A stretch of DNA of 64,000 bases from assembly GCA_963777955.1 (NCBI GenBank), contig CAVZSQ010000003.1:184753-248752 (forward strand). Reading direction: 5' to 3'. Source of the DNA: Calditrichia bacterium (lineage in GTDB: Bacteria > Calditrichota > Calditrichia > JAJRVZ01). Made by a program: the position numbers and the translations under genes. Below the pieces are notes generated by a model. That model was not told the origin of the DNA. It worked only from the letters and a program-made list of their open reading frames with translations, and ran no database searches. Each line of letters starts with the position of its first letter. Positions within the stretch are counted from its first letter, which is position 1. Positions 11,029 to 58,860 of this stretch are shown here, one piece after another.

Positions 11029-11076
11029 CAATTTATTGTCTGGTCATCGTAATTAATTTAACCAGACCGGTGGATT

Positions 11077-12545: not shown

Positions 12546-12579
12546 GGGATCAAGGGGAGGGTCAAAAAAAGGATAAAAT

Positions 12580-43336: not shown

Positions 43337-44551
43337 ATGAAACATGAGATACTAAGCGAGTTGATTAATAATAATCAATCAAAAATCATTTATATAATTA
43401 TGGATGGCCTGGGTGGTCTGCCCAAACAAAAAGGGGGTAAAACCGAATTAGAAACTGCCAAAACACCGAATCTCGATCACCTGGCCAAAGAAGGATGTAC
43501 TGGTTTACTGGATCCCATCGGTCAGGGTATGACCCCGGGTTCGGGTCCGGCCCATCTGGCCCTGTTTGGTTATGATCCCATTGCCGATAATGTCGGCCGG
43601 GGTATCCTGTCTGCCCTGGGAGTGGATTTCCCGGTTACCGGGCGGGATGTCTGTGCCCGGTTGAATTTTTGTACCATCGATGACAAGGGAAACGTCACCG
43701 ATCGCCGGGCCGGCCGCATCGCCACCGATGTCAACGAAAAATTGTGTAAAAAATTACAGGATTCGATCAAACTATCGGATGGCATCGAATTTTTCCTGCG
43801 CTCTGAAGCGGAACACCGGGCCCTGCTGGTAATCCGCGGCGATGATCTGGGCGGAAAAATAAACGATACCGATACCCAGAAGACCGGTGTACCGTCGCTG
43901 CCGGCCCAGGGCGAAGATCCCGCTTCGCAGAAAACAGCACGGTATGTAAATGAATTTCTGACCAAGGCTAAAGATGTACTGAAAAAAGATAAACCAGCCA
44001 ATTTCCTGCTGGCCCGCGGCTTTGCCAAACATGAGCCATTGCTGACTATGACCGAAAAATACGGTATCCGCTGCGCGGCCATTGCCCAGTATCCCATGTA
44101 CCGCGGCCTGGCCCGTCTGGTGGGTATGGATGTGCTGCCGAAACCGGAATCATATCCGGCCATGTATGAACAACTGAAAGAAAATTATAATAAATATGAT
44201 TTCTTTTTTATTCATTTTAAAAAAACCGACAGTTATGGTGAAGACGGTAACTTTGATGCCAAGGTTCACGTAATCGAAGAAGTCGATGCCTGGATCAAGG
44301 GATTAGATGCTTTAAAACCTGAGGTGGTACTGGTAACCGGTGATCATTCAACACCTGCAGTATTAAAAGCCCACAGCTGGCATCCCGTACCGGCGCTGTT
44401 GCATTGTGGCAATGGTCTGGGACGGCTGGATAACACGCATAAATTTGGCGAAACCGAATGCTCCCGTGGTGCCCTGGGCAGGATGCCCATGCGCAATATT
44501 ATTCTGGAAGCATTAGCTTCGGCCGGACGTATATTAAAATTCGGAGCATAG
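43337..44551 (+). CDS. apgM: Cofactor-independent phosphoglycerate mutase, archaeal type (ApgM)
   Basis: IIYIIMDGLGGLP...TPNLDHLAKEGCTGLLDP...GSGPAHLALFGYDP matches the ApgM/alkaline-phosphatase superfamily. Confidence 0.75.
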   Translation: MKHEILSELINNNQSKIIYIIMDGLGGLPKQKGGKTELETAKTPNLDHLAKEGCTGLLDPIGQGMTPGSGPAHLALFGYDPIADNVGRGILSALGVDFPVTGRDVCARLNFCTIDDKGNVTDRRAGRIATDVNEKLCKKLQDSIKLSDGIEFFLRSEAEHRALLVIRGDDLGGKINDTDTQKTGVPSLPAQGEDPASQKTARYVNEFLTKAKDVLKKDKPANFLLARGFAKHEPLLTMTEKYGIRCAAIAQYPMYRGLARLVGMDVLPKPESYPAMYEQLKENYNKYDFFFIHFKKTDSYGEDGNFDAKVHVIEEVDAWIKGLDALKPEVVLVTGDHSTPAVLKAHSWHPVPALLHCGNGLGRLDNTHKFGETECSRGALGRMPMRNIILEALASAGRILKFGA

Positions 44552-44627
44552 TTTAACCGGAAATAACGACACCAGCTCATCATCATAATAAATCGCTGGT
44601 ACGATTTTTTAGATAAGGAAAAAGAGG

Positions 44628-46901
44628 ATGGCAATGAAAAAGATTATTATGGATTATGACCGCCGGCAAAGTAAAAGGAATGAAACTTTACTGGCTAGCG
44701 CAAGATATCTGGGAACAAAAATTGAATCACAGGTACTCCCATTCCAGATTGACCTTGAGAATACACAGTCCCTTTCCGACCAGCAGGTGACAGGTTTACA
44801 AGCCCTGGAAATTTCTGCCGCCCGTACGGCTATCGAAACACTGGCCTCTCTGGCTGAAATAAATGAACTGGATCATCTGGGCGGCGGACTGGATCTGATT
44901 CCGGCCCTGACCATGACCATGGCCCTGGCAAATTTCAAGGAGGTCGAATACACTATAGAAAATGCCCACAGCAGTGTCGGTCATTATTCTGTCCTGGCTG
45001 CTTATGGTTATCTGGACAAAAAGCGGGTGATCACAAAATTCCGCCGCAGTCTCGATATCGCCGGTCATGTGGCCTGGCTGCCCGGTGGAACACAGGCCAA
45101 TGGCGGACGGTTGGGAATTATGGTTCCGGTGGCGGTCGGACAGGTATTGGGAAAAAAGGCAGTTTATGGATCAAAGTCCTGGATGCTGGTACACTGCGGT
45201 GATGCCGGCTGGATTTCCGGACAGGCTTTAAATGGCTTTAATGCTGCCGATCTGCACAAAGCGCCGATTACCTTTATCATGCACCGCAACGGGGTGCAAC
45301 TCTCCGGTTCCTGCAAGCAGATCATGGCCAAAGATCCCAGGCCGGTAATTTCCTCGCTGGGTATTCAAATCCTGGAGATACCCACCTTGCTTGATGCTGC
45401 CGGGCTTTATCAGGCTTACCGGGAAGCGTATCAATTAAACCGGCAGGGCAAGGCTGTAATGATTTTCCCGACCGGATTTTATTCAAGCGGAAATCAGAAA
45501 ATCGATCTGCAGCAGTTCGGCGAGAGATATGGTGTTTTAAAAGAAACGGAAGGGTTTGCCCGGAAGCAAGGGGTCATGATGTCGACTCCCATCTGGATTC
45601 CCGGTTCACTGATGAGTTACCGGGATGTGGATCCGATGCTGGAGTGCCTGTTCCTGGTCAACGATCTGCCGGGCGGTAAGGGGCACCATGACGGGCATAT
45701 GAAGGGACGTAAACTCGACGAAGTGCTGGCCAATCCGATGCTGCAGTATAGCGCGGATCAGCGGAATTTTCTGGATACTATAGCCAAACTACCTAAGAGA
45801 AAAGTTACAACCGAAGCCCGGCCCAGACCTGGCTCAGCGAACCTGGTTTTAGCCGATGATATTCTGGCAAAAATTAAATTAGCCGGTGCCGGTGAAAAAG
45901 TGAGTCCGCGGGTCGGCGCCGAAAGCGCTTACGTCGCGGTTGCCCAGTCTTACCCGGATAATTTTTTTGTAGTGGGCTGTGATCTGGATACTTCGACCCG
46001 GCTGGAAAAAGCCCGCAAGCTTTTAAAAGCTGATCATCAGTTTGAGATGAGTATTGAGGAGCAGGCTTCGGCTTTGATGGCCAACGGTCTGGCTATCAGC
46101 ACCCGCCAGAAGCAGTTGAATGTCTTTTCAACATTTGCAGCCTTTTTTGAAGGAATCGCCCGGGAAGGTTTTGAATTGTGGCGGTACCAGCGCAACCTGA
46201 ACGGTATCAATGAGGGGCTTAATGTAACCATGCATCTTTCGCATGTGGGGGCCTGTACCGGCCGGGATCATTTTTCCGGGTGGAGTCTGGATTGGATCAA
46301 TCTGGCTATCGGTTATCTGCCATATCTGCACCGCTTTTATGCACCTGCTGATGCCCGTTCGGCTTTTATAGCGGTCAAAGATCTGGCGGCGCATTACGGC
46401 GGGCATATTATCGGTATTCCCCGGGATAATCTGCCGGTACTGGCCAGGCAGGATGGCCGGGGGGCGTTGTGGGAAGCATCATCACCCTGGGAACCGGTCA
46501 CGCAGTACCGCAAATATCCCCAGGCCCGGCGGGCTATTCTGGTGATGGGTGCCCCGGCATTTCTGGCCGGACAGGCTGCGGACGAATTGTCGCAACGAAA
46601 GATTTATGCTGATGTGTATGTGGTCAATGGCTTGCCTGTCCCTGAGACGGTTCTGAATAAGATCTTTAAAAATCATCCCAGGGGACTGGTGACAGTTGAG
46701 GACGGAATTATCGGTAACCCGCAGACCGGCCGGCGCGGCTTTGCCGGGTATCTCAGTGCTGCGGCGTATGCTACCCGCATACCACTAAAACATATCGGTA
46801 TCACCGATCCGCGTATTGCACCATCCGATGGTCTGGACGAAGTGTGGGAGCATTTTGGAATAACGGCCAAAGCGATTGGTCAGGCGGTGAAGGATCTTTA
46901 A
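44628..46901 (+). CDS. Transketolase-family thiamine-diphosphate enzyme (757 aa, ~110 aa N-terminal extension)
   Basis: TPP motif GDAGWISGQALNGFNAA...MHRNG (GDG-x26-N type). The transketolase-like N-domain VGHYSVLAAYGYL resembles GHAAPALYAVLAEKGY. Confidence 0.5.
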   Translation: MAMKKIIMDYDRRQSKRNETLLASARYLGTKIESQVLPFQIDLENTQSLSDQQVTGLQALEISAARTAIETLASLAEINELDHLGGGLDLIPALTMTMALANFKEVEYTIENAHSSVGHYSVLAAYGYLDKKRVITKFRRSLDIAGHVAWLPGGTQANGGRLGIMVPVAVGQVLGKKAVYGSKSWMLVHCGDAGWISGQALNGFNAADLHKAPITFIMHRNGVQLSGSCKQIMAKDPRPVISSLGIQILEIPTLLDAAGLYQAYREAYQLNRQGKAVMIFPTGFYSSGNQKIDLQQFGERYGVLKETEGFARKQGVMMSTPIWIPGSLMSYRDVDPMLECLFLVNDLPGGKGHHDGHMKGRKLDEVLANPMLQYSADQRNFLDTIAKLPKRKVTTEARPRPGSANLVLADDILAKIKLAGAGEKVSPRVGAESAYVAVAQSYPDNFFVVGCDLDTSTRLEKARKLLKADHQFEMSIEEQASALMANGLAISTRQKQLNVFSTFAAFFEGIAREGFELWRYQRNLNGINEGLNVTMHLSHVGACTGRDHFSGWSLDWINLAIGYLPYLHRFYAPADARSAFIAVKDLAAHYGGHIIGIPRDNLPVLARQDGRGALWEASSPWEPVTQYRKYPQARRAILVMGAPAFLAGQAADELSQRKIYADVYVVNGLPVPETVLNKIFKNHPRGLVTVEDGIIGNPQTGRRGFAGYLSAAAYATRIPLKHIGITDPRIAPSDGLDEVWEHFGITAKAIGQAVKDL

Positions 46902-47205: not shown

Positions 47206-48543
47206 ATGATCACTAAAGTTGGTTTGGCAGTTAAAAGTATTAATGTTTTCCAGCAATTATCGCAGGAAGAGACCCTGCAGATGCAGATCCTTACCCATGA
47301 GGATATGGGTCAGCTGGGTTCCGGTGATGTTGCGTTGGATATTATCGTCTGGCAACCGGAATTTTCACGCGGTGAATTCCCGGTCGGCATGCAAAATTAT
47401 TTGCACAAAAACCAGGATACCGTTCTGATTGTTTACAATACCGACAAGATTAAATACCAGTTGCCCAAGTTTCTACAAAACGGAATGGTCACCGTGGTTA
47501 ATTCGGTGCTGACCAAATATGCCCTGAAGCAGTTGCTGAACAAGGCCGTGGAAACCCGGCATACGCGTTTGATCAATGAAGTCGATAAACCTGCTGTTAA
47601 TCCCGATGACGATCTGCGCGTGTTCGGCACCAGCAGCGACGTCAAGCAAATCAATGAATTCATCAATCTGATCGCCAAATCGGCCAATACTCATTGCCTG
47701 ATCCAGGGAGAAACCGGAACCGAGAAGACAGAAGTGGCCCGCCTGATCCATAAAAAAAGTACCAATGCCGGATTCCCCATTCAGGTTATCAACTGTGCCA
47801 ATGGCACCGGTGAAGAGATGCTGGTGAAATTATTCGGGATGGAGCGTGATGTACGGGATGGCAACCGGACCCACCCGGGTATTCTGGAAGTTTTCGACGA
47901 GGGAACCGTTGTCCTGGAAAATATTGAATTAATTGACAGTGAAGTACAAAGCAGGCTGGAAACATACATTGAAACACACTCCTTCCGGCGGGTCGGTTCA
48001 GAACAGGATATGACGACCAGAACCCGGATTATCGCCACCACGGCTTTTGACCTGGAACGGTTCGTTACGGATGAAAAATTTTCCAAGGATCTTTATTTCC
48101 GCTTCAAAGCTTTTGAACTGACCATTCCCGCGTTACGTAAAAGAAAAAACGATATTATCCCGCTGGCCAAAAGTTTTATCGCCTATTTTAATGATAAATT
48201 CGGTCATCATGTAAAGGGTATTAATCCCGAGATAGAACAAAAATTGCAGAATTATGACTGGCCGGGGAATTATTATGAATTACGGTTATTGATCGAGCAT
48301 GCAGTTCTGTTGACCCGGAAGGGTGAAATCACTTTTGCCGCGTTTCCCGATGAATCAACGTTTAAAAAGGAAACGATCAATGAGGTCAATATCCTGGGGA
48401 ATTGTTCTTTGCGGGAAATGGAACGTTTGCACATCTCCAAGGTACTGTTGCGCACCAAGGGCAATAAATCGAAAGCCGCAGAAATGCTGGAGATCTCCCG
48501 AACCACCCTGCGCGAAAAAATGCGCTCGTACGATCTGCAGTAA
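47206..48543 (+). CDS. Sigma54-activator-like (bEBP) transcriptional regulator with degenerate Walker A/B, no GAFTGA motif, and a C-terminal Fis-type HTH
   Basis: QGETGTEKTEVARLIH versus canonical GESGTGKE; EGTVVLENIELID versus GGTLFLDEIGEL; the region after KLFGMERDVRDGNRTHPG lacks GAFTGA; the HTH is KSKAAEMLEISRTTLREKM. Confidence 0.6.
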   Translation: MITKVGLAVKSINVFQQLSQEETLQMQILTHEDMGQLGSGDVALDIIVWQPEFSRGEFPVGMQNYLHKNQDTVLIVYNTDKIKYQLPKFLQNGMVTVVNSVLTKYALKQLLNKAVETRHTRLINEVDKPAVNPDDDLRVFGTSSDVKQINEFINLIAKSANTHCLIQGETGTEKTEVARLIHKKSTNAGFPIQVINCANGTGEEMLVKLFGMERDVRDGNRTHPGILEVFDEGTVVLENIELIDSEVQSRLETYIETHSFRRVGSEQDMTTRTRIIATTAFDLERFVTDEKFSKDLYFRFKAFELTIPALRKRKNDIIPLAKSFIAYFNDKFGHHVKGINPEIEQKLQNYDWPGNYYELRLLIEHAVLLTRKGEITFAAFPDESTFKKETINEVNILGNCSLREMERLHISKVLLRTKGNKSKAAEMLEISRTTLREKMRSYDLQ

Positions 48544-48668: not shown

Positions 48669-50762
48669 TTATCCATTCTCACCACATGAACGCGCCATCT
48701 GCAGTAAATAGAAACGCAATTGATTCTGTTGCTTCTCCGATAAAATATGTTCCTCGATACGCGCAATCCTTTCCACATCCTGCAGGGCGCGAATGATATC
48801 CAGCGGCAACTCGGTCATGGCTGTGGGCATCTGGGTTACATACTGTACTACGGAAATCAGGAACTGGCGCAAGCCATCATCCTTAACTCCGCGCAAAGAC
48901 TGTGACACCTGCGAACTCAAGCGCATGATTTTACCCGGTTCCACCGACAACGATGATTTATTCCAGCCCTGACCGGTTATTAAAGAATGAACAGCCAGCG
49001 CCAGTTGCACAAAACTCTCCACCTGCTGCTGGATCGGATCGGTCAGCAGCGTCCAGATATGCGTGCGCAGTTGTTTGACCTTCTCGGGTAAAATTAAAAC
49101 AGGTTCGATATTATCAGACCACGAAGCATCAATCCGGCCATGAATGTTTTGCAGCAGTTGATCCAGGCGGGTGTTAAAAATATCAGCCTGCAGCAGTACC
49201 GCGTACTGCGGATGAATGGCCGGCAGCAGATCAGGTTTGAACTGGTCATTTTCAAAGAAATCAGAGATATCGAGTCCCTGCCGTTTCAGCAATTCTTTCT
49301 GGAAGAAGGGGATGAACCGGTCCATGGCATCCAGGTCTTCGCGCATGGCCAGGAAGGAAGAATTGCCCGGCGGAAAACATTTTTCAATCCGCTTGGCATA
49401 GATCATCTCCCGATCCTGGTACATCCGCATGGTTTGCAGAATTTCATATACCGGTAACCGGGGTAAAATGCGATCGCTGATCAGGGTAATGGCTTCGCTG
49501 TAACTGGTCTGGGTGTTCAGAAATTCAGTCAGCGCCCGGAAAATACCGGTGGTAAGTTGATTCAGACCCAGTATCATGGTCTGGGCTTTGTAATGCCCGA
49601 TGGCCCTTAATAAACTGCCGTGCCTGGATAGCGGTAAGATCTGGGCAAAGCGGTCGATAAGTTTTTCGCTGCGCGTCCCCCCTTTAGCCGGATCGGGCCG
49701 GACGGTCGGGCGGTCGCGCAGCGGCGGAATGGCCCGCGATACGAAATAGGAGATGACATGAATTCCCACCACATCCTCATCGCGTCCGTAAATGATTTGC
49801 CGGAAATTCTGGGTCAGCAATTTCAGAAAATCGGTATAGATATTATCGACAGGTCCGCAGGTGATTCTTTCCAGTTCCTGTAAACCACGGGAGCGGAATT
49901 GCAAACGGGTAGCCTGTAAAGGTTCGCTGATTTGCTGCAACTGCCGCCGGTGGAAAGTCTGGGCCTGTTGCAGGTGATATAGAATCTGGGCCAGTTCGGC
50001 AGCCGGTATGAATTTCAATTGCTCAGCCAGGTTGCTCTGCACGGTCAGCAGATCCCGGTGCGCCATGATCCCGGTTAAAGGACTGCGGGCATACTGGGTA
50101 CTGTGCCGGGTGGAGGATTGTAGATTTTCCAGTAATCTTTTTTTGGCATATTTTTCCATCAGGAAAGTCGAATCCTGCTGCAAGGCGGAATAATACCCTC
50201 CCTGCCGCTGCATCGGTTCCCCGCACCCCAGTTTGATCCGGATAGAATCCACCAGACCATGCTCGGCACACCAACGGACCGCCTGATGTTTGGCCCGGCG
50301 GTAAGCATCAGCTCCGGCCGGTTGACTGATTTGCTGGCTAAGATCCGAACCGGCAATAAACAATTCACAGATCATCTCGGAAAAACGATCAGCCACCTGT
50401 TGATCCAGCCGGCGGCTTTTAATGGAATAATCCCATAATTTATCGAGATAGTTATCCAGGTGATTGACCGTATCCAGTTCTTCAAACAAGGGGATCAACC
50501 AGAGTGACGGAGTGTCCAGATCCGGATTGTTGCGCAGGGAATATTCACGTTTGGCCCGCATCTTGCGGTCCAGGGCAATCAGGGCATCCGGATCACTGGA
50601 CATACTGACCTGCATGGCCAGGACCAGAGCCGGATTACCGTATTTACCCGAAATTTCATTTATTTCAATCATATTGTGAACGGTGGTATCGATGGCGAAT
50701 TGATCACTGGAGGTGATCATATTCTGATGAATACGCGGAGTGAGTACAAATCGTCGCAGCAA
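48669..50762 (-). CDS. Large hypothetical protein (697 aa); last gene of the flotillin-led operon
   Basis: Long ORF with no recognisable catalytic motif. It follows the 814-aa gene with a ~30-nt gap. Confidence 0.5.
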   Translation of the reverse strand: MLRRFVLTPRIHQNMITSSDQFAIDTTVHNMIEINEISGKYGNPALVLAMQVSMSSDPDALIALDRKMRAKREYSLRNNPDLDTPSLWLIPLFEELDTVNHLDNYLDKLWDYSIKSRRLDQQVADRFSEMICELFIAGSDLSQQISQPAGADAYRRAKHQAVRWCAEHGLVDSIRIKLGCGEPMQRQGGYYSALQQDSTFLMEKYAKKRLLENLQSSTRHSTQYARSPLTGIMAHRDLLTVQSNLAEQLKFIPAAELAQILYHLQQAQTFHRRQLQQISEPLQATRLQFRSRGLQELERITCGPVDNIYTDFLKLLTQNFRQIIYGRDEDVVGIHVISYFVSRAIPPLRDRPTVRPDPAKGGTRSEKLIDRFAQILPLSRHGSLLRAIGHYKAQTMILGLNQLTTGIFRALTEFLNTQTSYSEAITLISDRILPRLPVYEILQTMRMYQDREMIYAKRIEKCFPPGNSSFLAMREDLDAMDRFIPFFQKELLKRQGLDISDFFENDQFKPDLLPAIHPQYAVLLQADIFNTRLDQLLQNIHGRIDASWSDNIEPVLILPEKVKQLRTHIWTLLTDPIQQQVESFVQLALAVHSLITGQGWNKSSLSVEPGKIMRLSSQVSQSLRGVKDDGLRQFLISVVQYVTQMPTAMTELPLDIIRALQDVERIARIEEHILSEKQQNQLRFYLLQMARSCGENG

Positions 50763-50793
50763 ACTGCGAAAAGAACCGGCCGCTACAGCCAGT

Positions 50794-53238
50794 TTAGGGA
50801 TGGTTTAAATTTTTCTGGATGAGCGGCAGTGATTCATATAAAGTCTTGCGCAGTTGCTTATTCAGGGCGAAATAGTATTCCAGTAATTCACGGCGCTGCT
50901 GACGTAACTGGACCATTCTTCGTTCCAGGCGATCATTATGCAACCAGAGTGATTTTACCGGATCGCGCGCCAGATGCAAAGCCATCGCCGTCCGGCGCAG
51001 GCGGCCGGTCTGCAGATTAAAAGGCAGGAAACTGCGAAAGCGTTGTTCCAATTGGTTGGTTAACAGAGTGATCTTATCCAGTAAATCGCGGAGTTTGCGG
51101 TTGCTGGCCGGTAATTGCTGTATCCTGGAATGCAGATCATCGGGAATATGCAAGGTCCGCTCGATAGTTGCCAGGATATTCAGAATGTGGGCCTGCTGAT
51201 TGACATTTTCCACCACCACGCCTGCCACCAGCCGGTGCCCCTGGCCCGAAGGCCGGGTACTGCCGTCCCAGTCACCCCAGAAGGAGAGCAGTAATTGTGT
51301 TGAGGAAGTACTGTTCCAGCGGGTATATTCCTCGGCCATAAGGTAGGTTTTGATATCGGCCACCAGTTCATCGGCTTCCTGCGAAGAACTGATAGCTACA
51401 CTCTGGCCCAGATATTCCTGTAGCAAATTAGTACCGAGGTTCTGTATAACCTCGCCGGCAAAATTCTTGGTTTGCAGAAATCCTTCGATCAACTGGTTGG
51501 CCGTCAGGTCCACCGGCAGACCGAACATCTGGGTGGGGTGTACGGTACGGTCGAACAGACGTTGCCGGAAATTCAGAGATCGCTGTCGCAGGTCTTCTTT
51601 GTAAAATTCTTTTTCCAGGATATCGATAATCTGTTTCCGGCGGTCGCTGTTTATAAGGGCTAACAGATCGGCAGTTGACTCCAGCCTGTCGGTAAAACGC
51701 TGCTGTAATTGAGCCAGCCGTTCAGGCAGATATTGTTCCAGGAATAGTTTACGGATGGACTGACCATCGATGCCTGTGGCACCTTTTTCAGTCTGCTTAC
51801 CGATCAAAAACCGGCCACGCTGGATTACTTGTTTGCCGGCTTTTTGCCATTTCTCCAGGGCATCGGGAAAGAACTGATTATAGTTATGTTTTTTAGATAT
51901 AACCCGGATTTTGCTACGGTTGTAGGCAGAGGTTTCTTCGGCAATCATACCGTTAAGATCGATCAGCATACGCCGCATCTTGTGCAATAAAATATCGGCA
52001 TTATCCCGGCCGCCCAGGGTCAGGCGGAAAGTTTTGCGGGCAACTTCATAGCCGCTGGCCGTGCGGGCGAACGTGGTCAGCGGAATCAGGCCGATACCGC
52101 GGGTGGCTAAACCGGAAGCCAGCCAGGAAAGGGAAAGACCGGATGGCAGGTGATTTATGACCAGATGCGGATACATACTACCCTGCGGGCGTTTGACTGA
52201 AATAGAAAAAGAATTTCTTTCCGCGGGGAAATCGGCAACCGCCCGTTCTAACGCAGCCATCCTTTCGGCAAAGATCTGGTTGCGCAACAGCCAGAATGAG
52301 CGGACTTTTTCCGGAGAATTGCGATAAAACAGATAGGCTAACAAAACGGCCATGATATTCGGTTTAAACAGGGACATATAGGATGTAAACCGGGCCAGCA
52401 ATTGCGGGTGCAGAATTTCCACCACCGCCAGGCGTGCCCCGGCAAAACAGTCGGTTTTGGATAACGAATGGACGGTGACCAGATATTGCAGATGATCGGA
52501 ACGGATCCGGCCTTGCTGCACCATGGCAGTGGCCAGTTGACGCAAGGTTTTAGGACCGGTCAATTCATTTGCCGGGGCAACCAGTTGATAGGAGAGATCA
52601 TCGATGACATGAATTTTTCTGGGCAGCAGAAACTGCAGCAAGGCTGTTACTTTATTTTCCGCGAAAATTTTTCCGGTGGCGTTATGCGGATTATTCAAAA
52701 TAAAAGCAGCCGATTCAGACCAGTGCGGATCGGCAGCGGACTTCCGTTCTACGGTATTAATAATGGCTGGAACATCCAGTTCAAATTCCGCCGTCAATGG
52801 TACAACTTCGACCCGGGGAAAACAATGTTCATAAGTCCAACTCAGATCTGTGGAAATAACCTCGGCCAGGCCGCAGTGGAAACCCAGGACGCTCAGCGCA
52901 GTGCGTGCCGAACCGGGTATTACCCTGCAGTTCTCAGTGGCATAATAAGGATGATGACTGGAAAATGCGCCCAGGAAACTGGCGATTAAATTCTGCTGGA
53001 AGTCGGGATTAATTCCCTGTTCGGAAAATAACAGGACAACTTCTTCATTTGACAGGCTGGAAAAATAATCTACTGCTGATCCACTTTGCGGCAGGTGGGG
53101 TATAAATCTTGAATTCCACTCTTTGCTGATCCGGTAACTGCGCGTTAATTTTTGAGACCAGGTTGTATTTTTAGTCTCAAGCCGCTCATGTACTCTCTTT
53201 ACGGCAAGATTAAAATGATCCAGCACCAGGCCGGGCAT
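50794..53238 (-). CDS. Fusion protein: class-I/II PLP-aminotransferase-fold domain (about 1-400) plus a ~430 aa C-terminal domain of unknown function
   Basis: NNPHNATGKIF (NPxNPTG-type), VHSLSKTDCFAGARLAVV (S-x-SK..G.R PLP-lysine motif). The C-terminal half has no match I can recognise. Confidence 0.55.
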   Translation of the reverse strand: MPGLVLDHFNLAVKRVHERLETKNTTWSQKLTRSYRISKEWNSRFIPHLPQSGSAVDYFSSLSNEEVVLLFSEQGINPDFQQNLIASFLGAFSSHHPYYATENCRVIPGSARTALSVLGFHCGLAEVISTDLSWTYEHCFPRVEVVPLTAEFELDVPAIINTVERKSAADPHWSESAAFILNNPHNATGKIFAENKVTALLQFLLPRKIHVIDDLSYQLVAPANELTGPKTLRQLATAMVQQGRIRSDHLQYLVTVHSLSKTDCFAGARLAVVEILHPQLLARFTSYMSLFKPNIMAVLLAYLFYRNSPEKVRSFWLLRNQIFAERMAALERAVADFPAERNSFSISVKRPQGSMYPHLVINHLPSGLSLSWLASGLATRGIGLIPLTTFARTASGYEVARKTFRLTLGGRDNADILLHKMRRMLIDLNGMIAEETSAYNRSKIRVISKKHNYNQFFPDALEKWQKAGKQVIQRGRFLIGKQTEKGATGIDGQSIRKLFLEQYLPERLAQLQQRFTDRLESTADLLALINSDRRKQIIDILEKEFYKEDLRQRSLNFRQRLFDRTVHPTQMFGLPVDLTANQLIEGFLQTKNFAGEVIQNLGTNLLQEYLGQSVAISSSQEADELVADIKTYLMAEEYTRWNSTSSTQLLLSFWGDWDGSTRPSGQGHRLVAGVVVENVNQQAHILNILATIERTLHIPDDLHSRIQQLPASNRKLRDLLDKITLLTNQLEQRFRSFLPFNLQTGRLRRTAMALHLARDPVKSLWLHNDRLERRMVQLRQQRRELLEYYFALNKQLRKTLYESLPLIQKNLNHP

Positions 53239-54227
53239 TGGCAGAGGGGTAGCGGAGTAACTTGCGGTCTGACTGTTTCTGTCCCTGCAGGTTTAACCGC
53301 AATTAATTTTGGCTCGCCGGTCAATATAAAATTCAGGTGATCCATCTCAGCAGCAGCCGGGGTACCCTTTAATTCGAACTGAACAGTTTCAATAATCCGC
53401 AGATATGCGGCATTACCGAGAAGAAAACCTGTAGTAAGCGAATCAAGTTGTTCGGCGAAAACGGCCGGAAAAATAATCCGGATCACCCGGTTGAGCATTT
53501 GAACTTCGCGGGCCAGGGAGAGATGGTTGGGCGCATTGTTCCCTTCGATGAAGAACAGGGGATGGGTTAAACCCAACTGACGCAATTGCCGGCGGGTAGT
53601 CTCGGAAAAAACAGATCCTATGACAAAAAATACCGGACATTCGGGATTTTCGGTCAGATAGTTTTTGCTCTGTTGTATGATGGCCTGCTCGGTGCCGTTT
53701 AACTGCCGGATGGTTAAACCGGGAAAATTTGCTAAATGCTGCGGCAAAGATATTCCCTGAATCAGGATATGAGCCGGTTTGGTCATGAGGTAACGCGATA
53801 AGGAATGGAAAATTATACGCAGAGTTTCATGAATACCGCCGTTGACAATAATGCATTCGCGTTGTCCGGATTCCTCGCCAAAATCATAACTTAGCGGTTC
53901 ATCCTGACCGGATAATAACCACTGCTTCACATAATTGATCAGGGGGATCGGGCGCTGGCGGGAAAAACCTCCCCGTGGCGAGTAGTTGATACTGTTATTG
54001 ATAGCCTGGTAAACTAATTGCCGGCAGGTGCCGGGTTGACCGGCATCTTCAGGGTTGTCTTCCGGTAAGACCAGCTGGCTGTATAATGCTATTAGGCGAT
54101 CATCCTGAACCGGATTACCGATATGAAAATTAACCCGTTCCTGTTCCGGGACAGTTGAAGCTGCGGTCGCTTCGCTGATTTCCGAAATAGTAGCGGCCTG
54201 CAAGGGCCGTAACTGAAAATACTTCAT
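53199..54227 (-). CDS. Degenerate aminotransferase-like protein (N-terminal AT-fold features, no PLP-lysine motif)
   Basis: FHIGNP...INYSPRGG resembles the AT N-terminal G.P / Y.P..G motifs. No S-x-SK motif is present. It overlaps the 814-aa gene by 40 nt. The start is chosen at MKYFQL (54227) just downstream of the flotillin stop. Confidence 0.4.
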   Translation of the reverse strand: MKYFQLRPLQAATISEISEATAASTVPEQERVNFHIGNPVQDDRLIALYSQLVLPEDNPEDAGQPGTCRQLVYQAINNSINYSPRGGFSRQRPIPLINYVKQWLLSGQDEPLSYDFGEESGQRECIIVNGGIHETLRIIFHSLSRYLMTKPAHILIQGISLPQHLANFPGLTIRQLNGTEQAIIQQSKNYLTENPECPVFFVIGSVFSETTRRQLRQLGLTHPLFFIEGNNAPNHLSLAREVQMLNRVIRIIFPAVFAEQLDSLTTGFLLGNAAYLRIIETVQFELKGTPAAAEMDHLNFILTGEPKLIAVKPAGTETVRPQVTPLPLCQCPAWCWIILILP

Positions 54228-54249
54228 GGACTCGCTGCCGGCAGCAGAA

Positions 54250-55239
54250 CTATTTTCCACCAGTCGATTTTTTCTCCCCTGATTTAGCGACTCCCGGAAC
54301 AAGATTCTGCAGGAAAGACTGCAGCAGTCCCAGGATGTGCGATCCCTGATTTGCTTCCTGCGGGGACAGGGAAATGACCGTACGGGCGTTGCGCAGGGTT
54401 TGACTTGCTTCAGCAAGTCGGGTGAATTGTGGATTCAGCAGCAGTAACTCCGGATTCTGCTTGAATAATTCGAGTTCCTTTTTATCGGCGGCAAGTTGCA
54501 GTTCGCGTCGCTTCAATTCCTCTTGTACCCGCAGAGTGGCGATGGCCGCTTCTTTTTCTTCGGTTACTTTTTTCAGTTCATATCTTTTGAGTTCCAGGTT
54601 ATGTTCGGCCAGGGCAATTTTTTCATCGGCATCGATGCGCACGCGGGTTGCGGCAATACGGGCTTTTTGTTTTTCGCTTTCGGTTTGTTCCAGGATGCGG
54701 CTGGATTCCTGCTGATGCATGGCCTCGGCAATTTCCTCGTCCAGCGGATCGATAGATTGAATGCTCAGCGCAACCAGGTCCAGCCCGAGGTCATGGCTGG
54801 TTTTACTCAATTGTTCCTGTAAATGGCTGGCTAATTTTGCCGAGGACAATTCTTCCAGGGCATATAGTTCCGTATAGCCTTTGACTGCGGAATAGACCAC
54901 CACCTGCAGTTCTTTGGCGGCCTTGGCTACGGCATCTTCATTCCAGCCGCCTGCCCGGATTAACTGGGACAGGTGACCATCAGCCGGAGCCACGCTCAAA
55001 ATGACCACTACCTGCAGGCCGAGTTTTCCTTTGGCTTCAGCTTCCACTTTTACCGAAAGGGAATGCGTTGTACCCAGCAATGGCAGACTGAAATGGCGGG
55101 GGTATAAACGTCTGCGCCGCTGTTTGACATCTCCGGCTTTTTCATATAATATAATATGATCCGGTTTGCGCAGCCGGTATTCATAAAACAGGTAAGCGAT
55201 GATGACGATCAGTGCCGCGACAAGAGCATAAACCCACAT
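54250..55239 (-). CDS. Flotillin-like SPFH/band-7 protein with a coiled-coil tail
   Basis: N-terminal TM MWVYALVAALIVIIAYLF, an SPFH core, and a long EA/KE-rich coiled coil (..KKVTEEKEAAIATLRVQEELKRRELQLAADKKELE..). Confidence 0.65.
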   Translation of the reverse strand: MWVYALVAALIVIIAYLFYEYRLRKPDHIILYEKAGDVKQRRRRLYPRHFSLPLLGTTHSLSVKVEAEAKGKLGLQVVVILSVAPADGHLSQLIRAGGWNEDAVAKAAKELQVVVYSAVKGYTELYALEELSSAKLASHLQEQLSKTSHDLGLDLVALSIQSIDPLDEEIAEAMHQQESSRILEQTESEKQKARIAATRVRIDADEKIALAEHNLELKRYELKKVTEEKEAAIATLRVQEELKRRELQLAADKKELELFKQNPELLLLNPQFTRLAEASQTLRNARTVISLSPQEANQGSHILGLLQSFLQNLVPGVAKSGEKKSTGGK

Positions 55240-55478
55240 ATTTACTTCCCTCCTGAAAATGGGGTATTTTAATTTCTTCTGTTGTATTATCCCCGCCGGT
55301 CAGCAGATACTAACTGTCTTTAAGTACTGGTAGTTAGAGCAATATGCATCAATCAGGGGATCGGAAACACATTGTCGTGAAAATTAGTTACTGAAGGTAT
55401 AGAAATCAAGATGAGAATTATATATGGTTTTACTTGACTGCTTAGCCGGGTGTAAGTAAATTTCTACACTTTTTAAAC

Positions 55479-55596
55479 GGTCCGGTAGTTTCTCGACTAT
55501 TGTCGGGAGTTAGAGCACCTGTACGTCTACCTGGCGTTAGACAAACCGTCACGCAGGAAGTTGTCCGGCAGCTGCCGGAAGTCTCGCCCGTCCCGA
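55479..55596 (+). ncRNA. tRNA-Asp-derived RNA gene copy A, with its own TTGACT-17-TAAATT promoter, three hairpin insertions (D-loop, anticodon region, T-arm), and a 3' strand that cannot pair into an acceptor stem
   Basis: GGTCCGGTAGTT[tctcgactattgtcgggag]TTAGAGCACCTG[tacgtctacctggcgttagacaaacc]GTCACGCAGGAAGTTG[tccggcagctgccgga]AGTCTCGCCCGTCCCG aligned to the intact tRNA-Asp at 55885. Confidence 0.5.
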
Positions 55597-55700
55597 TGAG
55601 TGAACATTATGAACGAATCGGGATCCGTTCATCCCCCATTGTACTTTTGTTTTACTTGACTGAAAGATTTGGGCTGTTAATCTTACAACACTTTAAATAA

Positions 55701-55815
55701 GGACCGGTAGTTTCCCGACTGAGGTCGGGAGTTAGAGCACCTGTACGTCTACCTGGCGTTAGACAGGCCGTCACGCAGGAAGTTGTCCGGCAGTGCCGGA
55801 AGTATCGTCCGTAGC
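55701..55815 (+). ncRNA. tRNA-Asp-derived RNA gene copy B (paralogue of A), promoter TTGACT-16-TAATCT, same three insertions, with a compensatory change in the D-loop hairpin
   Basis: A has CUCGAC/GUCGGG (one U.G pair); B has CCCGAC/GUCGGG (all Watson-Crick). The anticodon-region hairpin GUCUA-CCUGGCGU-UAGAC is identical in both. Confidence 0.5.
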
Positions 55816-55884
55816 CCCCCTTTTGTCCTGTTGTTTTACTTGACTGAAAGATTTGACCTGCTTATATTTCATCACTTAAAAATT

Positions 55885-55959
55885 GGTCCGGTAGTTCAAT
55901 TTGGTTAGAGCACCTGCCTGTCACGCAGGAAGTTGCGAGTTCGAGTCTCGTCCGGACCG
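55885..55959 (+). tRNA. tRNA-Asp (anticodon GTC), with upstream promoter TTGACT-17-TATATT (55839-55867) and downstream terminator gccccccttgtgggggcttttt
   Basis: GGTCCGGTAGTTCAATTTGGTTAGAGCACCTGCCTGTCACGCAGGAAGTTGCGAGTTCGAGTCTCGTCCGGACCG forms a canonical cloverleaf with anticodon loop CUGUCAC. No CCA is encoded. Confidence 0.85.
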
Positions 55960-56002
55960 CTGGTAGCAGCCCCCCTTGTGGGGGCTTTTTAATTTAATAC
56001 AG

Positions 56003-56083
56003 CCACGCAGGAAGTTGTCCGGCAGACTCCGCCGGAAGTCTCGTCCGGACCGCGGGTAGAAGCCCCCCTTGTGGGGGCTTTTT
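56003..56083 (+). repeat. Partial tRNA-Asp copy (anticodon loop to 3' end, T-arm carrying a hairpin insertion) plus a copy of the tRNA terminator; att-site-like
   Basis: CACGCAGGAAGTTGtccggcagactccgccggaAGTCTCGTCCGGACCGcgggtagaagccccccttgtgggggcttttt. A further remnant gaagtcttgtccggaccacg lies at 56127-56146, followed by the hairpin ccattgttgttatataacaatgg. Confidence 0.6.
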
Positions 56084-56525
56084 AATTTCATGAATTCATA
56101 TAGACAGTAGGCCCCGATATATCGGCGAAGTCTTGTCCGGACCACGATGTACCATTGTTGTTATATAACAATGGGTTTATTATTTCATGCCAACTTTACA
56201 ATACCAAGGTAATGCTACCTCTATCATTATCAATGGTAAAATCAACTATGAACAGCATTCTTTTTACAGATTAATTTAGTAGATTGCTATTTGCATTTTA
56301 ATATTTATATTGAATAACAAGTATCAATAGTTATACAAATTGAGTCCCTTTTCGGTTTATTAATTTTCTTACAGATAGTAGAAGAAACAATTTAATTTAA
56401 CCAACGTTTAAAAAATTGTATTGATTTATTATGTTTATTGCGATTCAATAAAAGGCATGATTCTATTTGATATACGTTAAATCGCCACAAAGATGCTGTG
56501 GTTTACGAGGTAAAATGGAGGGATT

Positions 56526-58860
56526 ATGGGTGACTGCATGCAAAATATTACCAAAGAAATCTTTAAGAATTCATGCCTATTATTTCTTGCTATTGTATTC
56601 TTCCCTGAATTACTTTTCTGTCAAACAGAACGAGTTGATATTTCAATTTGGCAAGAAGAGAGTGGTAGCAAACAGCTTCTTCAAAAAGGTGTACCAGTTA
56701 TATTTCCATCACAGACTTTTCATTACAATCGCAACGAGAGAGAACAATATTTATGGACGAACTCTTCGCTTGATATACAATATCAAACCATGATATCAGA
56801 TACAGGGTCTTTTCAACCTGTTTCTGGTCCTTATGGTGGAACCGTCCGGAGTATCGCTCTCGATTCTGACGGTTGGCTTTTTATTGCCACAGATGGTGAG
56901 GTCTATAGATCGAAAGATAATGGATTACACTGGGATATGAATCTTTTCCCCTCACAGATACATAACTTTGTTGAACCTGTAACCATCCTTGGTCCAAATG
57001 TGGTGGTCGCTGAAACAGATTTCGGTAACTTCATCTCAAGGGACAGGGGTGAATCCTGGAATTATTTGCTCGATGATGTACAAGGGTTTGCAGTTGATAC
57101 AACTGGGGTGATATATGCAGGGTCAAATTATGATGGAATTATGAAATCAACTGACGCAGCAAAGTCCTGGACACAATATGCATTGGCGGGAAGAAAGATC
57201 TTCAAAGTGGTCCTGTGTGGCGAAGGAAAATTCGCTTGCTATTCCGATTCGGGTATTTTCGTATCTTCTGATAATGGAATAACATGGATACTCAGACCTA
57301 AGGAGACCGGAGACACTCGGTACTTGGTGAGTGATAAACGAGGAAACCTATTTATCCTGAAATTCTTGAATGAACGCTTACAACTTTATCGTAGCAGTGA
57401 TTTTGGAGAAATATGGCAGCACATAGTTTTGCCAACATCGGGGCATGCATATCGAGTTTACGTAGAAAACGATGGGAGTCTAATTGTACCTACTACTAGT
57501 ACCCGAAAATCGTAAAGACAAAATTCTAATGTCCACTGATGCTGGAGAAACATGGAGGGAGTTGCCATTTCCTGTTGGTGCGCCTCTAACCGTAGGCAGA
57601 GATGCTACGGGGAAATTACTGGCAGGATGTTTCAATGGCATTTACAAGTATAATGATACTGATAGTGATTGGAGCGAACTTAACAATGGTATTCATGCCC
57701 GGAGGATTGACGAGATTGAGTCTACCTCTACAGGATCAATTCTTGTACTTAGCTTGGGTACATGTTTCCGAAGCACAGATTATGGAAATTGTTGGACAAG
57801 TGTGTATATTGGTGGTCCGGCCGGTGGTACATATCCACACACTCCAATTCTTTGTACATCAGGTGGAAATATTTTTATTGCAGCCGTTTTTTATGACAAT
57901 TCTGAATGCGGTCTTTTCCGCTCTACAGACGATGGTTTATCCTGGGATCGGATTTCAGTCCCCTCAAATTACTATCAAATTTCTGGAATCACCGAAGGCC
58001 CTTCAGGAGACATTTTAATATCTACTTATTTCGGCGACATCTACCGTTCCACTGATAAAGGAGATTCATGGATCAGGGTTGTTTCGAGTGCAAGCCAATC
58101 AGAAATTACATGTATCGCTTCGGATAAAATAGGGAATTACTATGCGGCAAAGGATACGTCTATACTCTTCTCTCCTGATGGAATTGTTTGGGAAGTGTTT
58201 TCTATGAAACGTAACTATTACCCTCATGAATCAATGTGTATTGATACCCGTGGAGAGATTTTCCTTGGTTCGTTGTTCGATGGAGTTTATCATTCCTCTG
58301 ATCAAGCTAGAACCTGGAACCTGATGAATGACGGCCTCATTGATAAATATGTAATAAGCACAACGGCAGACGATAGTGGGAACGTTGTCCTGGGAACATC
58401 ATCTGGGATTTTCCGTCTTGCTGATTCCATTGAAAGTTGGTCGAGTTTTAGTAATGGTTTCCCGAATACTTTCACAAAAGCACTCTCCATTTCTCCACAG
58501 GGTTATTTGTATGCGGGGACTCAAAGCTTCGGAATATATAGGAGTGTTCGTCCAATTGGAAAACGTATTCAAAAGGTCAATCCTCCTCCTATACTGGATA
58601 TTACTGAATTCAGTCTTTACCAGAATTACCCTAATCCTTTCAATGATCAAACTGTTATCCGTTATGAGGTGCCTTCTAATGCAAGGGTTGAGATCAGGAT
58701 ATACAATATTCTGGGACAGGTGGTAACTACACTCATCTCGGACGATTTGCCTGAGGGCAGTTACGATATGGGATGGACTCCAAAACAACTTTCCAGTGGG
58801 CTTGTACTTCTGCGAGATGAAAGCTTCCTCAGGTTCAAGAACATATACGAAAGTAATTAA
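56526..58860 (+). pseudogene. BNR/Ycf48-like beta-propeller surface protein with a T9SS C-terminal sorting domain, split by a frameshift in an A4 run (~57507-57510)
   Basis: Recurrent S-x-D-x-G-x-T/S-W units (SKDNGLHW, SRDRGESW, STDAAKSW, SSDNGITW, STDAGETW, STDYGNCW, STDDGLSW, STDKGDSW). C-terminal FSLYQNYPNPFNDQTVIRYEVP. Removing one A gives ..PTTSTRNRKDKILMSTDAGETW. Confidence 0.7.

Follow-up and report, generated by a model that had tools for sequence, protein, structure and literature searches.

Phosphoenolpyruvate (PEP) carboxylases (PEPCs) are recognized in four types, bacterial, BTPC, PTPC and atPEPC, none with an aminotransferase fusion, and the atPEPC type is a stand-alone protein of 55 to 60 kDa (PMC8100219). 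A survey of prokaryotic SPFH operons, which covers 12 subfamilies, names neither an aminotransferase nor a carboxylase as a partner (PMC2636767). Our literature searches found nothing relevant on an aminotransferase-PEPC fusion, on an SPFH partner of the aminotransferase-PEPC kind, or on PEPC in Melioribacter, Ignavibacterium or Caldithrix. Within the window, the whole 64-kb stretch of DNA that was analyzed, lies a locus that brings these elements together. It consists of an SPFH gene and a giant gene directly behind it, a pair that is conserved in more than 300 bacterial species and was previously undescribed. The giant gene would encode one polypeptide of ~1,870 residues, in which a degenerate aminotransferase is followed by a complete PLP aminotransferase and a diverged PEPC domain.

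All genes of the locus are on the minus strand, with the positions and spacing first described for them. The SPFH/Band-7 gene (54250..55239, 329 aa) has a Shine-Dalgarno-like AGGAGGG (55248..55254), read from the sequence, 8 nt upstream of its ATG at 55239. ORF2 (53199..54227) begins with an ATG 22 nt past the SPFH stop, ORF3 (50794-53238, 814 codons) overlaps ORF2 by 40 nt, and ORF4 (48669..50762) starts 31 nt beyond the ORF3 stop. The sequence-only reading had counted a four-gene operon here, but ORF2, ORF3 and ORF4 are pieces of one gene (48669..54227, ~1,850 codons after correction of two single-base indels), which makes the module an operon of two genes, the SPFH gene and the giant gene. 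Among the 70 loci that are not cut by a contig end, 65 have a single ORF spanning the equivalents of all three (1,829 to 1,961 codons, median 1,874).

The two indels are apparent from comparison with intact relatives. Between the window and L083, a metagenome contig of 90% nucleotide identity with an intact 1871-codon gene, the frame is broken in just two places, both of them single-base homopolymer changes, and alignment to L002 (83% nucleotide identity), which encodes an intact 1874-aa protein (P0190), shows the same two-indel result. P0190 shares a 90% cluster with the ORF4 fragment, and in L083-L085 the giant gene is called as one 1871-aa gene. By the DNA alignments to L083 and L002, site 1 (53255..53259, minus strand) has one A fewer than the intact relatives (TTAAC to TTAC near 53257) and lies within the variable linker joining domains 1 and 2. 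Site 2 (50796..50800, minus strand) has an extra C (CATCCTAAA to CATCCCTAAA near 50798, CC to CCC), which makes the TAA that terminates ORF3. ORF2 and ORF4 share one frame (54227-50762 = 3465 = 3x1155) with ORF3 frame-shifted between them, and the last ~19 codons of ORF2 are out-of-frame read-through. Deletion of one C at site 2 gives a translation that runs colinear with the homologues, N H P K L A V A A G S F R S L L R R F V L T P R I H Q.

The split is most likely a sequencing or assembly error, since the gene is intact in every close relative, the indels are confined to homopolymers, and at least four further genes in the window look frameshift-split, at roughly one break per 10 kb. We consider it improbable that both frameshifts are real and reflect either fission into three reassembling polypeptides (the pseudo-aminotransferase, the aminotransferase with the N-terminal part of the PEPC, and the C-terminal part of the PEPC) or a decaying pseudogene. 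Both indels are present in the deposited assembly, where the depositors' gene calls are likewise split (P0121, 353 aa; P0001, 683 aa), site 1, in the linker, is followed directly by an ATG (53238), and the ORF3 frame is open for all its 814 codons between the sites, all of which would suit a genuine split. Site 2, however, falls in a conserved stretch, where a break would remove ~11 residues ahead of the invariant ORF4 motif TPRIHQ (50724-50741), and the only restart there is a TTG without a visible ribosome-binding site. Read-through would need a -1 plus a +1 programmed shift, neither of them conserved elsewhere; a programmed frameshift at CCC-UAA was rejected on the grounds that relatives have no shift there and that a second one of opposite sign would also be required. 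Homologue lengths of 560 to 1,165 aa might suggest a variable gene architecture, but they are explained by short-contig fragments and by long-read assemblies that are prone to error; several frameshifts are present in L001, and homologue clusters are represented by fragments. If the split is indeed an error, the practical lesson is that homopolymer errors in an assembly produced an apparent "four-gene operon."

Relatives of the giant gene are found in at least 334 GTDB species, with carriers in Calditrichota, Ignavibacteria/Melioribacteraceae, KSB1, Bryobacterales/Solibacteraceae and some Chloroflexota; cultured carriers include Melioribacter sp. OK-6-Me, Rosettibacter primus and Stygiobacter electus. 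The SPFH gene is immediately upstream in 64 of the 64 loci with upstream DNA, and in L083-85 its stop overlaps the giant-gene start by 11 nt. These two are the only genes conserved across loci, the other neighbors being variable housekeeping or catabolic genes. This neighborhood comparison, proposed in the sequence-only reading, shows that the neighbors occur together, and that reading holds to the extent that the module is real, conserved and undescribed. The downstream sigma54-type regulator is degenerate, as had been noted, but it does not belong to the module; like a transketolase-like gene and apgM, it was rejected as a member because it is adjacent only in Calditrichota. The same reading held that the operon would be coincidental if the large proteins turned out to belong to ordinary metabolic families. 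A PEPC family was found, yet the linkage is conserved and the ORFs are in fact fused, so assignment to a metabolic family does not mean coincidence.

The first protein is of the SPFH type, in line with its initial description. It matches Pfam Band_7 (PF01145; E=2.8e-5, 24.7 bits against a cut-off of 23.6), as do 17 of 23 orthologues (best E=1e-11), and it combines this above-threshold match with the membrane anchor expected of the SPFH/Band 7 family. The anchor is an N-terminal hydrophobic stretch (residues 2-19, MWVYALVAALIVIIAYLFY), after which come RLRKPD, the SPFH domain and a C-terminal half rich in Glu and Lys, with a sequence resembling a coiled coil. Comparison of the protein and its family profile with PDB sequences gave no match. 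Gene 1 probably encodes a divergent SPFH protein with one N-terminal transmembrane helix and, because of the positive-inside rule, with its bulk in the cytoplasm. The arrangement resembles the known prokaryotic SPFH operons (stomatin/NfeD, HflK/C-FtsH, flotillin/YqiK) in that two closely packed genes encode a membrane-anchored SPFH protein, its C-terminal half rich in Glu and Lys, and the presumed client. Unlike in those operons, the partner is a putative cytoplasmic metabolic enzyme of ~210 kDa rather than an NfeD protein or a protease; the giant enzyme gene is the sole conserved neighbor, in the place of the NfeD-type or protease partner of SPFH1, 2 and 5 and HflK/C. The SPFH oligomer may tether or enclose the large enzyme complex at the inner membrane face.

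Domain 1 of the giant protein, corresponding to ORF2 (53199..54227, minus strand), is a pseudo-aminotransferase by its AF2 model and Foldseek fold match. The model (pLDDT 83, pTM 0.80) gave 680 matches in the PDB, the top ones all class-I aminotransferases (6f5v with E=8e-12 and probability 1.0, Thermus AspAT, YbdL and KATs), and the alignments to prephenate AT, AspAT and others extend over ~290 columns, as expected for the aminotransferase fold. The domain consists of the class-I N-terminal segment and large domain, without the small domain and without the PLP lysine: the SxSK position holds no invariant Lys, no conserved Lys was found after the strand at 248-252, and K287 is the only invariant Lys. 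ORF2 has no sequence match in Pfam, in NCBIfam or, by sequence profile, in the PDB, which leaves domain 1 outside PF00155 by both PLP lysine and sequence match, and hhalign gave no significant match between domains 1 and 2. The domain keeps the invariant Tyr of PYxPRGG, presumably the position at which class-I enzymes have a Tyr reaching into the active site of the partner subunit (Tyr70 of AspAT).

Domain 2 (52009..53010, minus strand; ORF3 residues ~77-410) is a complete class-I/II PLP aminotransferase. Residues 77-408 match Pfam Aminotran_1_2 (PF00155; E=2e-12, 47.3 bits against a cut-off of 19.7), and the motifs NPHNATG (52672-52692), DDLSYQ (52585-52602), SLSK with the PLP lysine (52456-52467), GARL (52429-52440) and FRLTLGG (52009-52029) are all present. 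Invariant residues include N136/N140, D167/D168, Y171, S212/S214/K215 and R223, so that the model match is joined by the Asn, the Asp/Tyr, the PLP Lys of SxSK and the phosphate Arg of class I/II enzymes. The two claims made for this pair from the letters alone, a degenerate aminotransferase lacking the PLP lysine in ORF2 and an intact PLP site (NPHNATG and SLSK) in ORF3, both hold. The domain 2 family profile matches BNA3/KAT (3b46, E=4e-10), AspB, AroAT and PatB in the PDB. Comparison with NCBIfam gave no substrate class: domain 2 lies equally far from many families of aminotransferases, lyases and decarboxylases, and it is, like domain 1, far below every family cut-off, so its sequence lends no support to aspartate specificity.

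Like class-I (subgroup I-gamma-like) aminotransferases (Thermus/Pyrococcus AspAT, prephenate AT, KAT/BNA3 and YbdL), domain 2 has all PLP-binding motifs, and domain 1 has the same fold. Unlike them, the protein carries two copies in tandem in one chain, with domain 2 missing the conserved N-terminal segment and domain 1 missing the PLP Lys, Asn and Arg as well as the small domain. The aminotransferase dimer is obligate, and domain 1 may stand in for its second subunit, completing a single active site in domain 2. If so, the tandem of a dead and a live aminotransferase would clearly illustrate how a homodimeric enzyme can become a pseudo-heterodimer within a single chain.

The remainder of the protein had been read as two separate unknowns, a 430-aa extension and a 697-aa hypothetical protein, which instead form the N-terminal part (50794..51950, minus strand; ORF3 residues ~430-814) and the C-terminal part (ORF4) of one PEPC-like domain. 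This domain has ~1,080 aa (~120 kDa) and is always C-terminal, in proteins of 1,690 to 1,947 aa. Structure prediction and fold search of the large proteins, which the sequence-only reading had recommended, gave an AF2 model with pLDDT 80 and pTM 0.81, for which PEPCs make up all of the best 46 Foldseek matches in the PDB (E 5e-13 to 1e-7), with noise below them, placing the domain in the three-dimensional fold of PEPC.

The active-site motifs follow the same order as in PEPC: TVHPTQ (51529-51546; compare TAHPTE with His138), FWGDWDGSTRPSGQGH (51235-51282; compare SWMGGDRDGNP), QLRQQRR (50890-50910; compare DIRQES with Arg396), PLFEE (50478-50492; compare PLFE with Glu506), AGSDLSQQ (50331-50354; compare GYSDSAKD with Asp543), GEPMQRQGG (50196-50222; compare GRGGSIGRGG with Arg587), LRDRPTVRP (49695-49721; compare Arg699), LLRAIGH (49593-49613; compare Arg713) and a C-terminal GENG (48672-48683; compare NTG), all on the minus strand. 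In a colinear sequence alignment with E. coli numbering, as distinct from a structural superposition, the counterparts of H138, W248, R396, L504, E506, D543, R587, R699 and R713 are invariant in 65 of 65 intact family members from 65 species, as is that of the C-terminal N-G. The catalytic His, both metal ligands, the hydrophobic pocket and four of five key arginines are thereby kept. Essentially all members share the replacements K546 to Q, H579 to M/L and R581 to S/C in the SDSxK and FHGRGG motifs, and the glycine-rich loop is altered (GSGEPMQRQGG instead of GRGGSIGRGG).

Direct sequence comparison is largely silent about this domain. The PEPcase models (PF00311 and PF14010) match neither ORF3 and ORF4 nor the intact relatives P0198, P0227 and P0228; ORF4 has nothing in Pfam; and searches with ORF3 and ORF4 against PDB, Pfam, NCBIfam and PADLOC return the aminotransferase domain only. 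A phmmer search of the PEPC-like sequence against the PDB gave no match, and hhalign aligned the family profile colinearly with E. coli Ppc, though without significance (probability 0.8%). The ORF4 family profile finds only 3odm in the PDB (E=0.4). The PEPC-like family profile also finds P0341, a stand-alone relative of 1,038 aa (E=2.6e-24), which passes Pfam PEPcase_2 (PF14010; 32.8 bits against a cut-off of 25) and has no phmmer match in the PDB. From the model and these profile matches, we infer that the C-terminal ~1,080 residues are a highly diverged, previously unrecognized PEPC-like domain whose nearest relative is the archaeal type. Unlike archaeal-type PEPC (PepcA, PF14010, structure 3odm), a stand-alone subunit of ~55-60 kDa, the domain here, with ~120 kDa and no direct Pfam match, follows two aminotransferase-fold domains in a fusion whose gene always comes after an SPFH gene. 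Bacterial/plant-type PEPC (PF00311; E. coli Ppc 1jqn; maize, Flaveria, Arabidopsis) differs in having no significant sequence match to it, in the three residues replaced at Lys546, His579 and Arg581, and in domain context.

These parts suggest a membrane-tethered fused enzyme, a reading in which we place middling confidence. The PEPC-like domain would convert PEP and bicarbonate to oxaloacetate, and the attached aminotransferase, completed by its pseudo-aminotransferase partner, would turn this labile 2-oxo acid directly into aspartate, with glutamate or another amino acid as donor, while the SPFH protein would serve as the tether. Oxaloacetate is the only organic product of PEPC and a classical aminotransferase substrate, which we count in favor of such a carboxylase-transaminase pathway. 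Counting against the reading are the family-wide replacement of three PEPC residues with the altered glycine-rich loop, the lack of a direct PEPcase match, and the non-significant hhalign results for E. coli Ppc and for the two aminotransferase domains.

It is possible, with appreciably less confidence, that the folds are right and the C-terminal domain is something other than a PEPC. It might catalyze some other reaction that depends on PEP or an oxo acid, acting for instance like a mutase or lyase on a phospho-enol substrate to yield a 2-oxo acid that is then aminated, or be a regulatory or structural pseudo-enzyme, and the aminotransferase might have another substrate, for instance an aromatic, sulfur-containing or phosphorylated amino acid. 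Against these readings, the residues specific to PEPC chemistry are kept (the TAHPTE His, the Trp/Leu/hydrophobic pocket, the metal ligands, Arg587 and the C-terminal N-G), their invariance across phyla speaks against a pseudo-enzyme, Foldseek gives significant matches to PEPCs alone, and the bridging relative P0341 is encoded among housekeeping genes, like an ordinary PEPC. A module for stress, defense or membrane quality control, with the SPFH protein as effector and the giant protein as sensor or toxin, seems to us very remote. The distribution over unrelated phyla suggests horizontal transfer, and SPFH proteins have frequent links to membrane stress, both of which could be counted toward such a role. 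Against it, PADLOC gave no match for any of the four ORFs, the proteins lack domains of nuclease, protease, NTPase or toxin type, the variable flanking genes are of housekeeping or catabolic kinds, and all three domains of the giant protein have the folds of metabolic enzymes together with conserved motifs of the active site.

Extending the preferred reading of a fused carboxylase-transaminase, the giant protein could represent a fifth class of PEPC, hard-wired to its own aminotransferase and making aspartate from PEP and CO2 without releasing oxaloacetate, with a dedicated SPFH cage arranging it at the membrane. We offer this only tentatively. If true, it would be the first SPFH scaffold with a central-carbon enzyme as client and a natural PEPC-AspAT channeling machine. 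The fusion would then be a natural answer to the instability of oxaloacetate and a template for engineered PEPC-AspAT channeling, and the invariable SPFH partner would provide a tractable system for the role of bacterial SPFH scaffolds toward a defined soluble client. In current annotation, all parts of the module bar one aminotransferase domain are labeled "hypothetical." If the proposed chemistry holds, several lineages would make aspartate from PEP by a fused carboxylase-transaminase that is invisible to that annotation, and metabolic reconstructions of abundant sediment and soil bacteria would be missing an anaplerotic or CO2-fixing step.

The four minus-strand open reading frames (ORFs) at 48669-55239 lie and are spaced as a sequence-only reading had described them. 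The SPFH gene (54250-55239; Pfam Band_7) is followed by ORF2 (53199-54227; nothing in Pfam), whose ATG lies 22 nt past the SPFH stop. ORF3 (50794-53238; Pfam Aminotran_1_2, residues 77-408) overlaps ORF2 by 40 nt, and ORF4 (48669-50762; nothing in Pfam) starts 31 nt past the ORF3 stop. NCBIfam and PADLOC searches of the four ORFs gave no information beyond Pfam. The earlier count of four genes was wrong, as ORF2, ORF3, and ORF4 are one frame in relatives, leaving SPFH and a single giant gene. Among the GTDB species representatives scanned, 334 species carry relatives, and the scan yielded 80 loci, in which tblastn with the window proteins places ORF2, ORF3, and ORF4 consecutively and in the same frame. 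Of the 70 loci that no contig end interrupts, 65 show a single ORF of >1,800 codons (median, 1,874) in a stop-to-stop frame walk. ORF4 homologues are often 1,000 to 1,165 aa long, with their first 450 residues 48% identical to the C-terminal 450 residues of ORF3.

The closest relatives carry the gene whole. A Calditrichota metagenome-assembled genome (L002; 83% nucleotide identity) has an open frame of 1,897 codons, and its 1,874-aa protein shares one 90% cluster with the ORF4 fragment. Three JGI contigs (L083-85), whose SPFH protein falls in the 90%-identity cluster of the window SPFH, each have a giant gene call of 1,871 aa. Window ORF2 and ORF4 lie in one frame, from which the intervening ORF3 is shifted. 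Alignment to L083 (90% DNA identity) shows only two frame-breaking differences, each a single-base homopolymer change, TTAAC to TTAC near 53257 and CATCCTAAA to CATCCCTAAA near 50798, and comparison with L002 gives the same sites. By Pfam, these 64 kb hold at least four more genes broken into an N-terminal and a C-terminal part whose frames adjoin and overlap: a solute-binding protein and an alpha-amylase (each in two halves), an amylase/CBM48 protein parted from Por_Secre_tail, its type-IX secretion tail, and a propeller of the BNR/Sortilin type broken before its secretion tail. The plus-strand regions with split genes are 7116-8394, 11062-12412, 12577-15571, and 56514-58860, and the assembly seems to hold about one indel per 10 kb. 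A true fission or a pseudogene could also account for the split, but with intact closest relatives, homopolymer-only breaks, and the further split genes, we consider this unlikely, and error-prone assembly is the most economical reading of the sequences. In a 1.88-Mb long-read contig (L001, 6759-13489), several frameshifts disrupt the SPFH gene as well as the giant gene. Many odd-length database "homologues" (560 to 1,165 aa) are likewise frameshift fragments or contig-end cuts, and a fragment sometimes serves as the representative of a protein cluster in this family.

Clustering all ORFs of 81 loci bears out the co-occurrence on which the operon reading turned. The giant gene is present in 81 of 81 loci and the SPFH gene in all 64 with upstream DNA; these are the only two families common to the loci, and the module is thus SPFH plus the giant gene, which overlap by 11 nt in L083-85. 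The next-largest family (18 loci) comprises sigma54-activator paralogues. These lie next to the giant gene, and convergent with it, only in Calditrichota, where transketolase-like and apgM genes accompany them. Carriers in the GTDB scan include Calditrichota, the lineage in which its nearest relatives place the window itself, Ignavibacteria/Melioribacteraceae (with the cultured Melioribacter, Rosettibacter, and Stygiobacter), KSB1, and Bryobacterales/Solibacteraceae, to which Anaerolineales are added from the source names of homologues. Searched exhaustively with an HMM, 1.84 billion representative proteins gave only 249 matches, about 35 of them full length (1,690 to 1,947 aa) and all with a single architecture.

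In the window, the sigma54-activator-like regulator (47206-48543, plus strand; Pfam Sigma54_activat, E=3e-33) is degenerate, as had been noted. Its Walker A (GETGTEKT) and Walker B (VLENIE) are both degenerate and it lacks the GAFTGA loop; it is therefore probably not a working sigma54 activator. Beyond it (43337-46901, plus strand) lies apgM, a genuine cofactor-independent phosphoglycerate mutase that scores 553 bits in NCBIfam NF003160 (cut-off, 468), followed by a 757-aa transketolase-like protein weakly matching transketolase models. This pair accompanies the regulator in Calditrichota loci L002, L003, L029, and L052, and a link to PEP supply is speculative. On the other side, tRNA-Asp(GTC) (55885-55959, plus strand) sits amid degenerate tRNA-Asp-like repeats (55461-56146): two copies of ~111 nt with arm insertions (55461-55571 and 55683-55793), 88% identical and 222 nt apart, and two copies of the 3' half (55944-55998 and 56037-56091), with the hairpin AGCCCCCCTTGTGGGGGCTTTTT after each. 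They may represent scars of integration or a repeat derived from the tRNA.

The SPFH protein, though divergent, scores above the Band_7 threshold; of 23 orthologues, 17 match the model. RLRKPD comes directly after the protein's single N-terminal hydrophobic helix, which predicts that the SPFH domain and C-terminal half are cytoplasmic and might contact a client there. In the ORF clustering of 81 loci, neither an NfeD nor a protease partner is conserved near the gene.

The giant protein begins with two aminotransferase folds. Domain 1 (ORF2) has no sequence match in Pfam, NCBIfam, or a PDB profile search, and its hhalign alignment to domain 2 is colinear and not significant. Its AF2 model, built from 40 homologues (pLDDT 83), matches class I aminotransferases in Foldseek with probability 1.0 over ~290 columns, led by prephenate aminotransferase 6f5v (E=8e-12) and then Thermus AspAT, YbdL, and KATs. 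The N-terminal segment and large domain are present and the small domain is absent. No conserved Lys occupies the expected SxSK position after strand 248-252, and the PLP-binding Asn and Arg are also judged missing from the sequence, which confirms the degenerate aminotransferase first proposed. An invariant PYxPRGG motif is kept; at this place class I enzymes have the Tyr (AspAT Tyr70) that reaches the partner subunit's active site. Domain 2 (ORF3 residues ~77-410) exceeds the Pfam Aminotran_1_2 threshold and keeps all PLP motifs as invariant residues, in agreement with the intact site reported earlier. Its profile matches KAT/BNA3, AspB, AroAT, and PatB-type enzymes in the PDB; every NCBIfam match is far under cut-off, with no family standing out, and the substrate cannot be read from sequence. 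By consensus and alignment offset, a variable linker replaces the conserved N-terminal segment of canonical enzymes. Domains 1 and 2 appear to complement each other and may thus form, within one chain, a pseudo-dimer that has a single active site.

The ORF3 tail and ORF4, earlier regarded as an uncharacterised domain and a protein without placeable motifs, match no Pfam or NCBIfam model, but AF2 and Foldseek make them one PEP carboxylase (PEPC)-like domain of ~1,080 residues. The model of a 1,163-aa homologue, P0022 (pLDDT 80, pTM 0.81), has 46 PDB matches at E<=1e-7, all PEPCs, including those of Arabidopsis, maize, Flaveria, E. coli (1jqn), and the archaeal type (3odm); the remainder are noise. 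The family profile also reaches P0341 (E=2.6e-24), a stand-alone 1,038-aa protein above the Pfam PEPcase_2 threshold and colinear end to end with the domain. Encoded on a Logan SRR22387790 contig (L086, 6892-10008) beside the housekeeping genes for MetRS and AdoHcy hydrolase, P0341 has roughly double the size of the archaeal-type PEPCs known so far, retains the SDSxK Lys, and appears to represent a separate, long form of PEPC that has escaped annotation.

All PEPC signature motifs have counterparts, invariant in 65 species. E. coli TAHPTE (His138) corresponds to TVHPTQ, SWMGGDRDGNP (Trp248) to FWGDWDGSxRP, DIRQES (Arg396) to LRxxR, PLFE (Leu504, Glu506) to PLFE, YSDSAK (Asp543, Lys546) to GSDLSQ, FHGRGGSIGRGG (His579, Arg581, Arg587) to KMGSGEPMQRQGG, GSRPAKRRP (Arg699) to RDRPTVRP, SLRAIPW (Arg713) to LLRAIxH, and the C-terminal NTG to ENG. 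By the roles assigned to these residues in work on the PEPCs of E. coli and maize (Kai, Matsumura and Izui 2003, as cited in PMC8100219), the family retains the catalytic His, the two metal ligands, the hydrophobic pocket, and four of the arginines; Lys546 is replaced by Gln, His579 by Met/Leu, and Arg581 by Ser/Cys.

A 2020 review (PMC8100219) recognizes four PEPC types, bacterial, plant-type, bacterial-type in plants, and archaeal-type, and describes no aminotransferase fusion. A survey of prokaryotic SPFH operons (PMC2636767), in which 12 subfamilies are listed, names neither an aminotransferase nor a carboxylase as a partner. Sources name the giant protein "hypothetical protein" or, from its one recognizable domain, "aminotransferase," and literature searches found no description of it, in agreement with the initial view of an undescribed module. 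We regard the giant protein as a cryptic member of the PEPC superfamily, whose fusion and SPFH partner are both new.

We are highly confident in the architecture as assigned. That the catalytic motifs are strictly invariant in different phyla favours an active enzyme. Given the three substitutions and the remodelling of the glycine-rich loop, the C-terminal domain may perform some other PEP-dependent chemistry. The only organic product of PEPC is oxaloacetate, a classical aminotransferase substrate, and fused enzymes usually catalyze consecutive steps; for these reasons we tentatively propose, at a little under an even chance, that PEP and HCO3- would be converted to oxaloacetate and then to aspartate within one polypeptide. 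In this scheme, domain 1 would act as the second subunit of the aminotransferase dimer, and an SPFH oligomer would keep the enzyme complex at the membrane.
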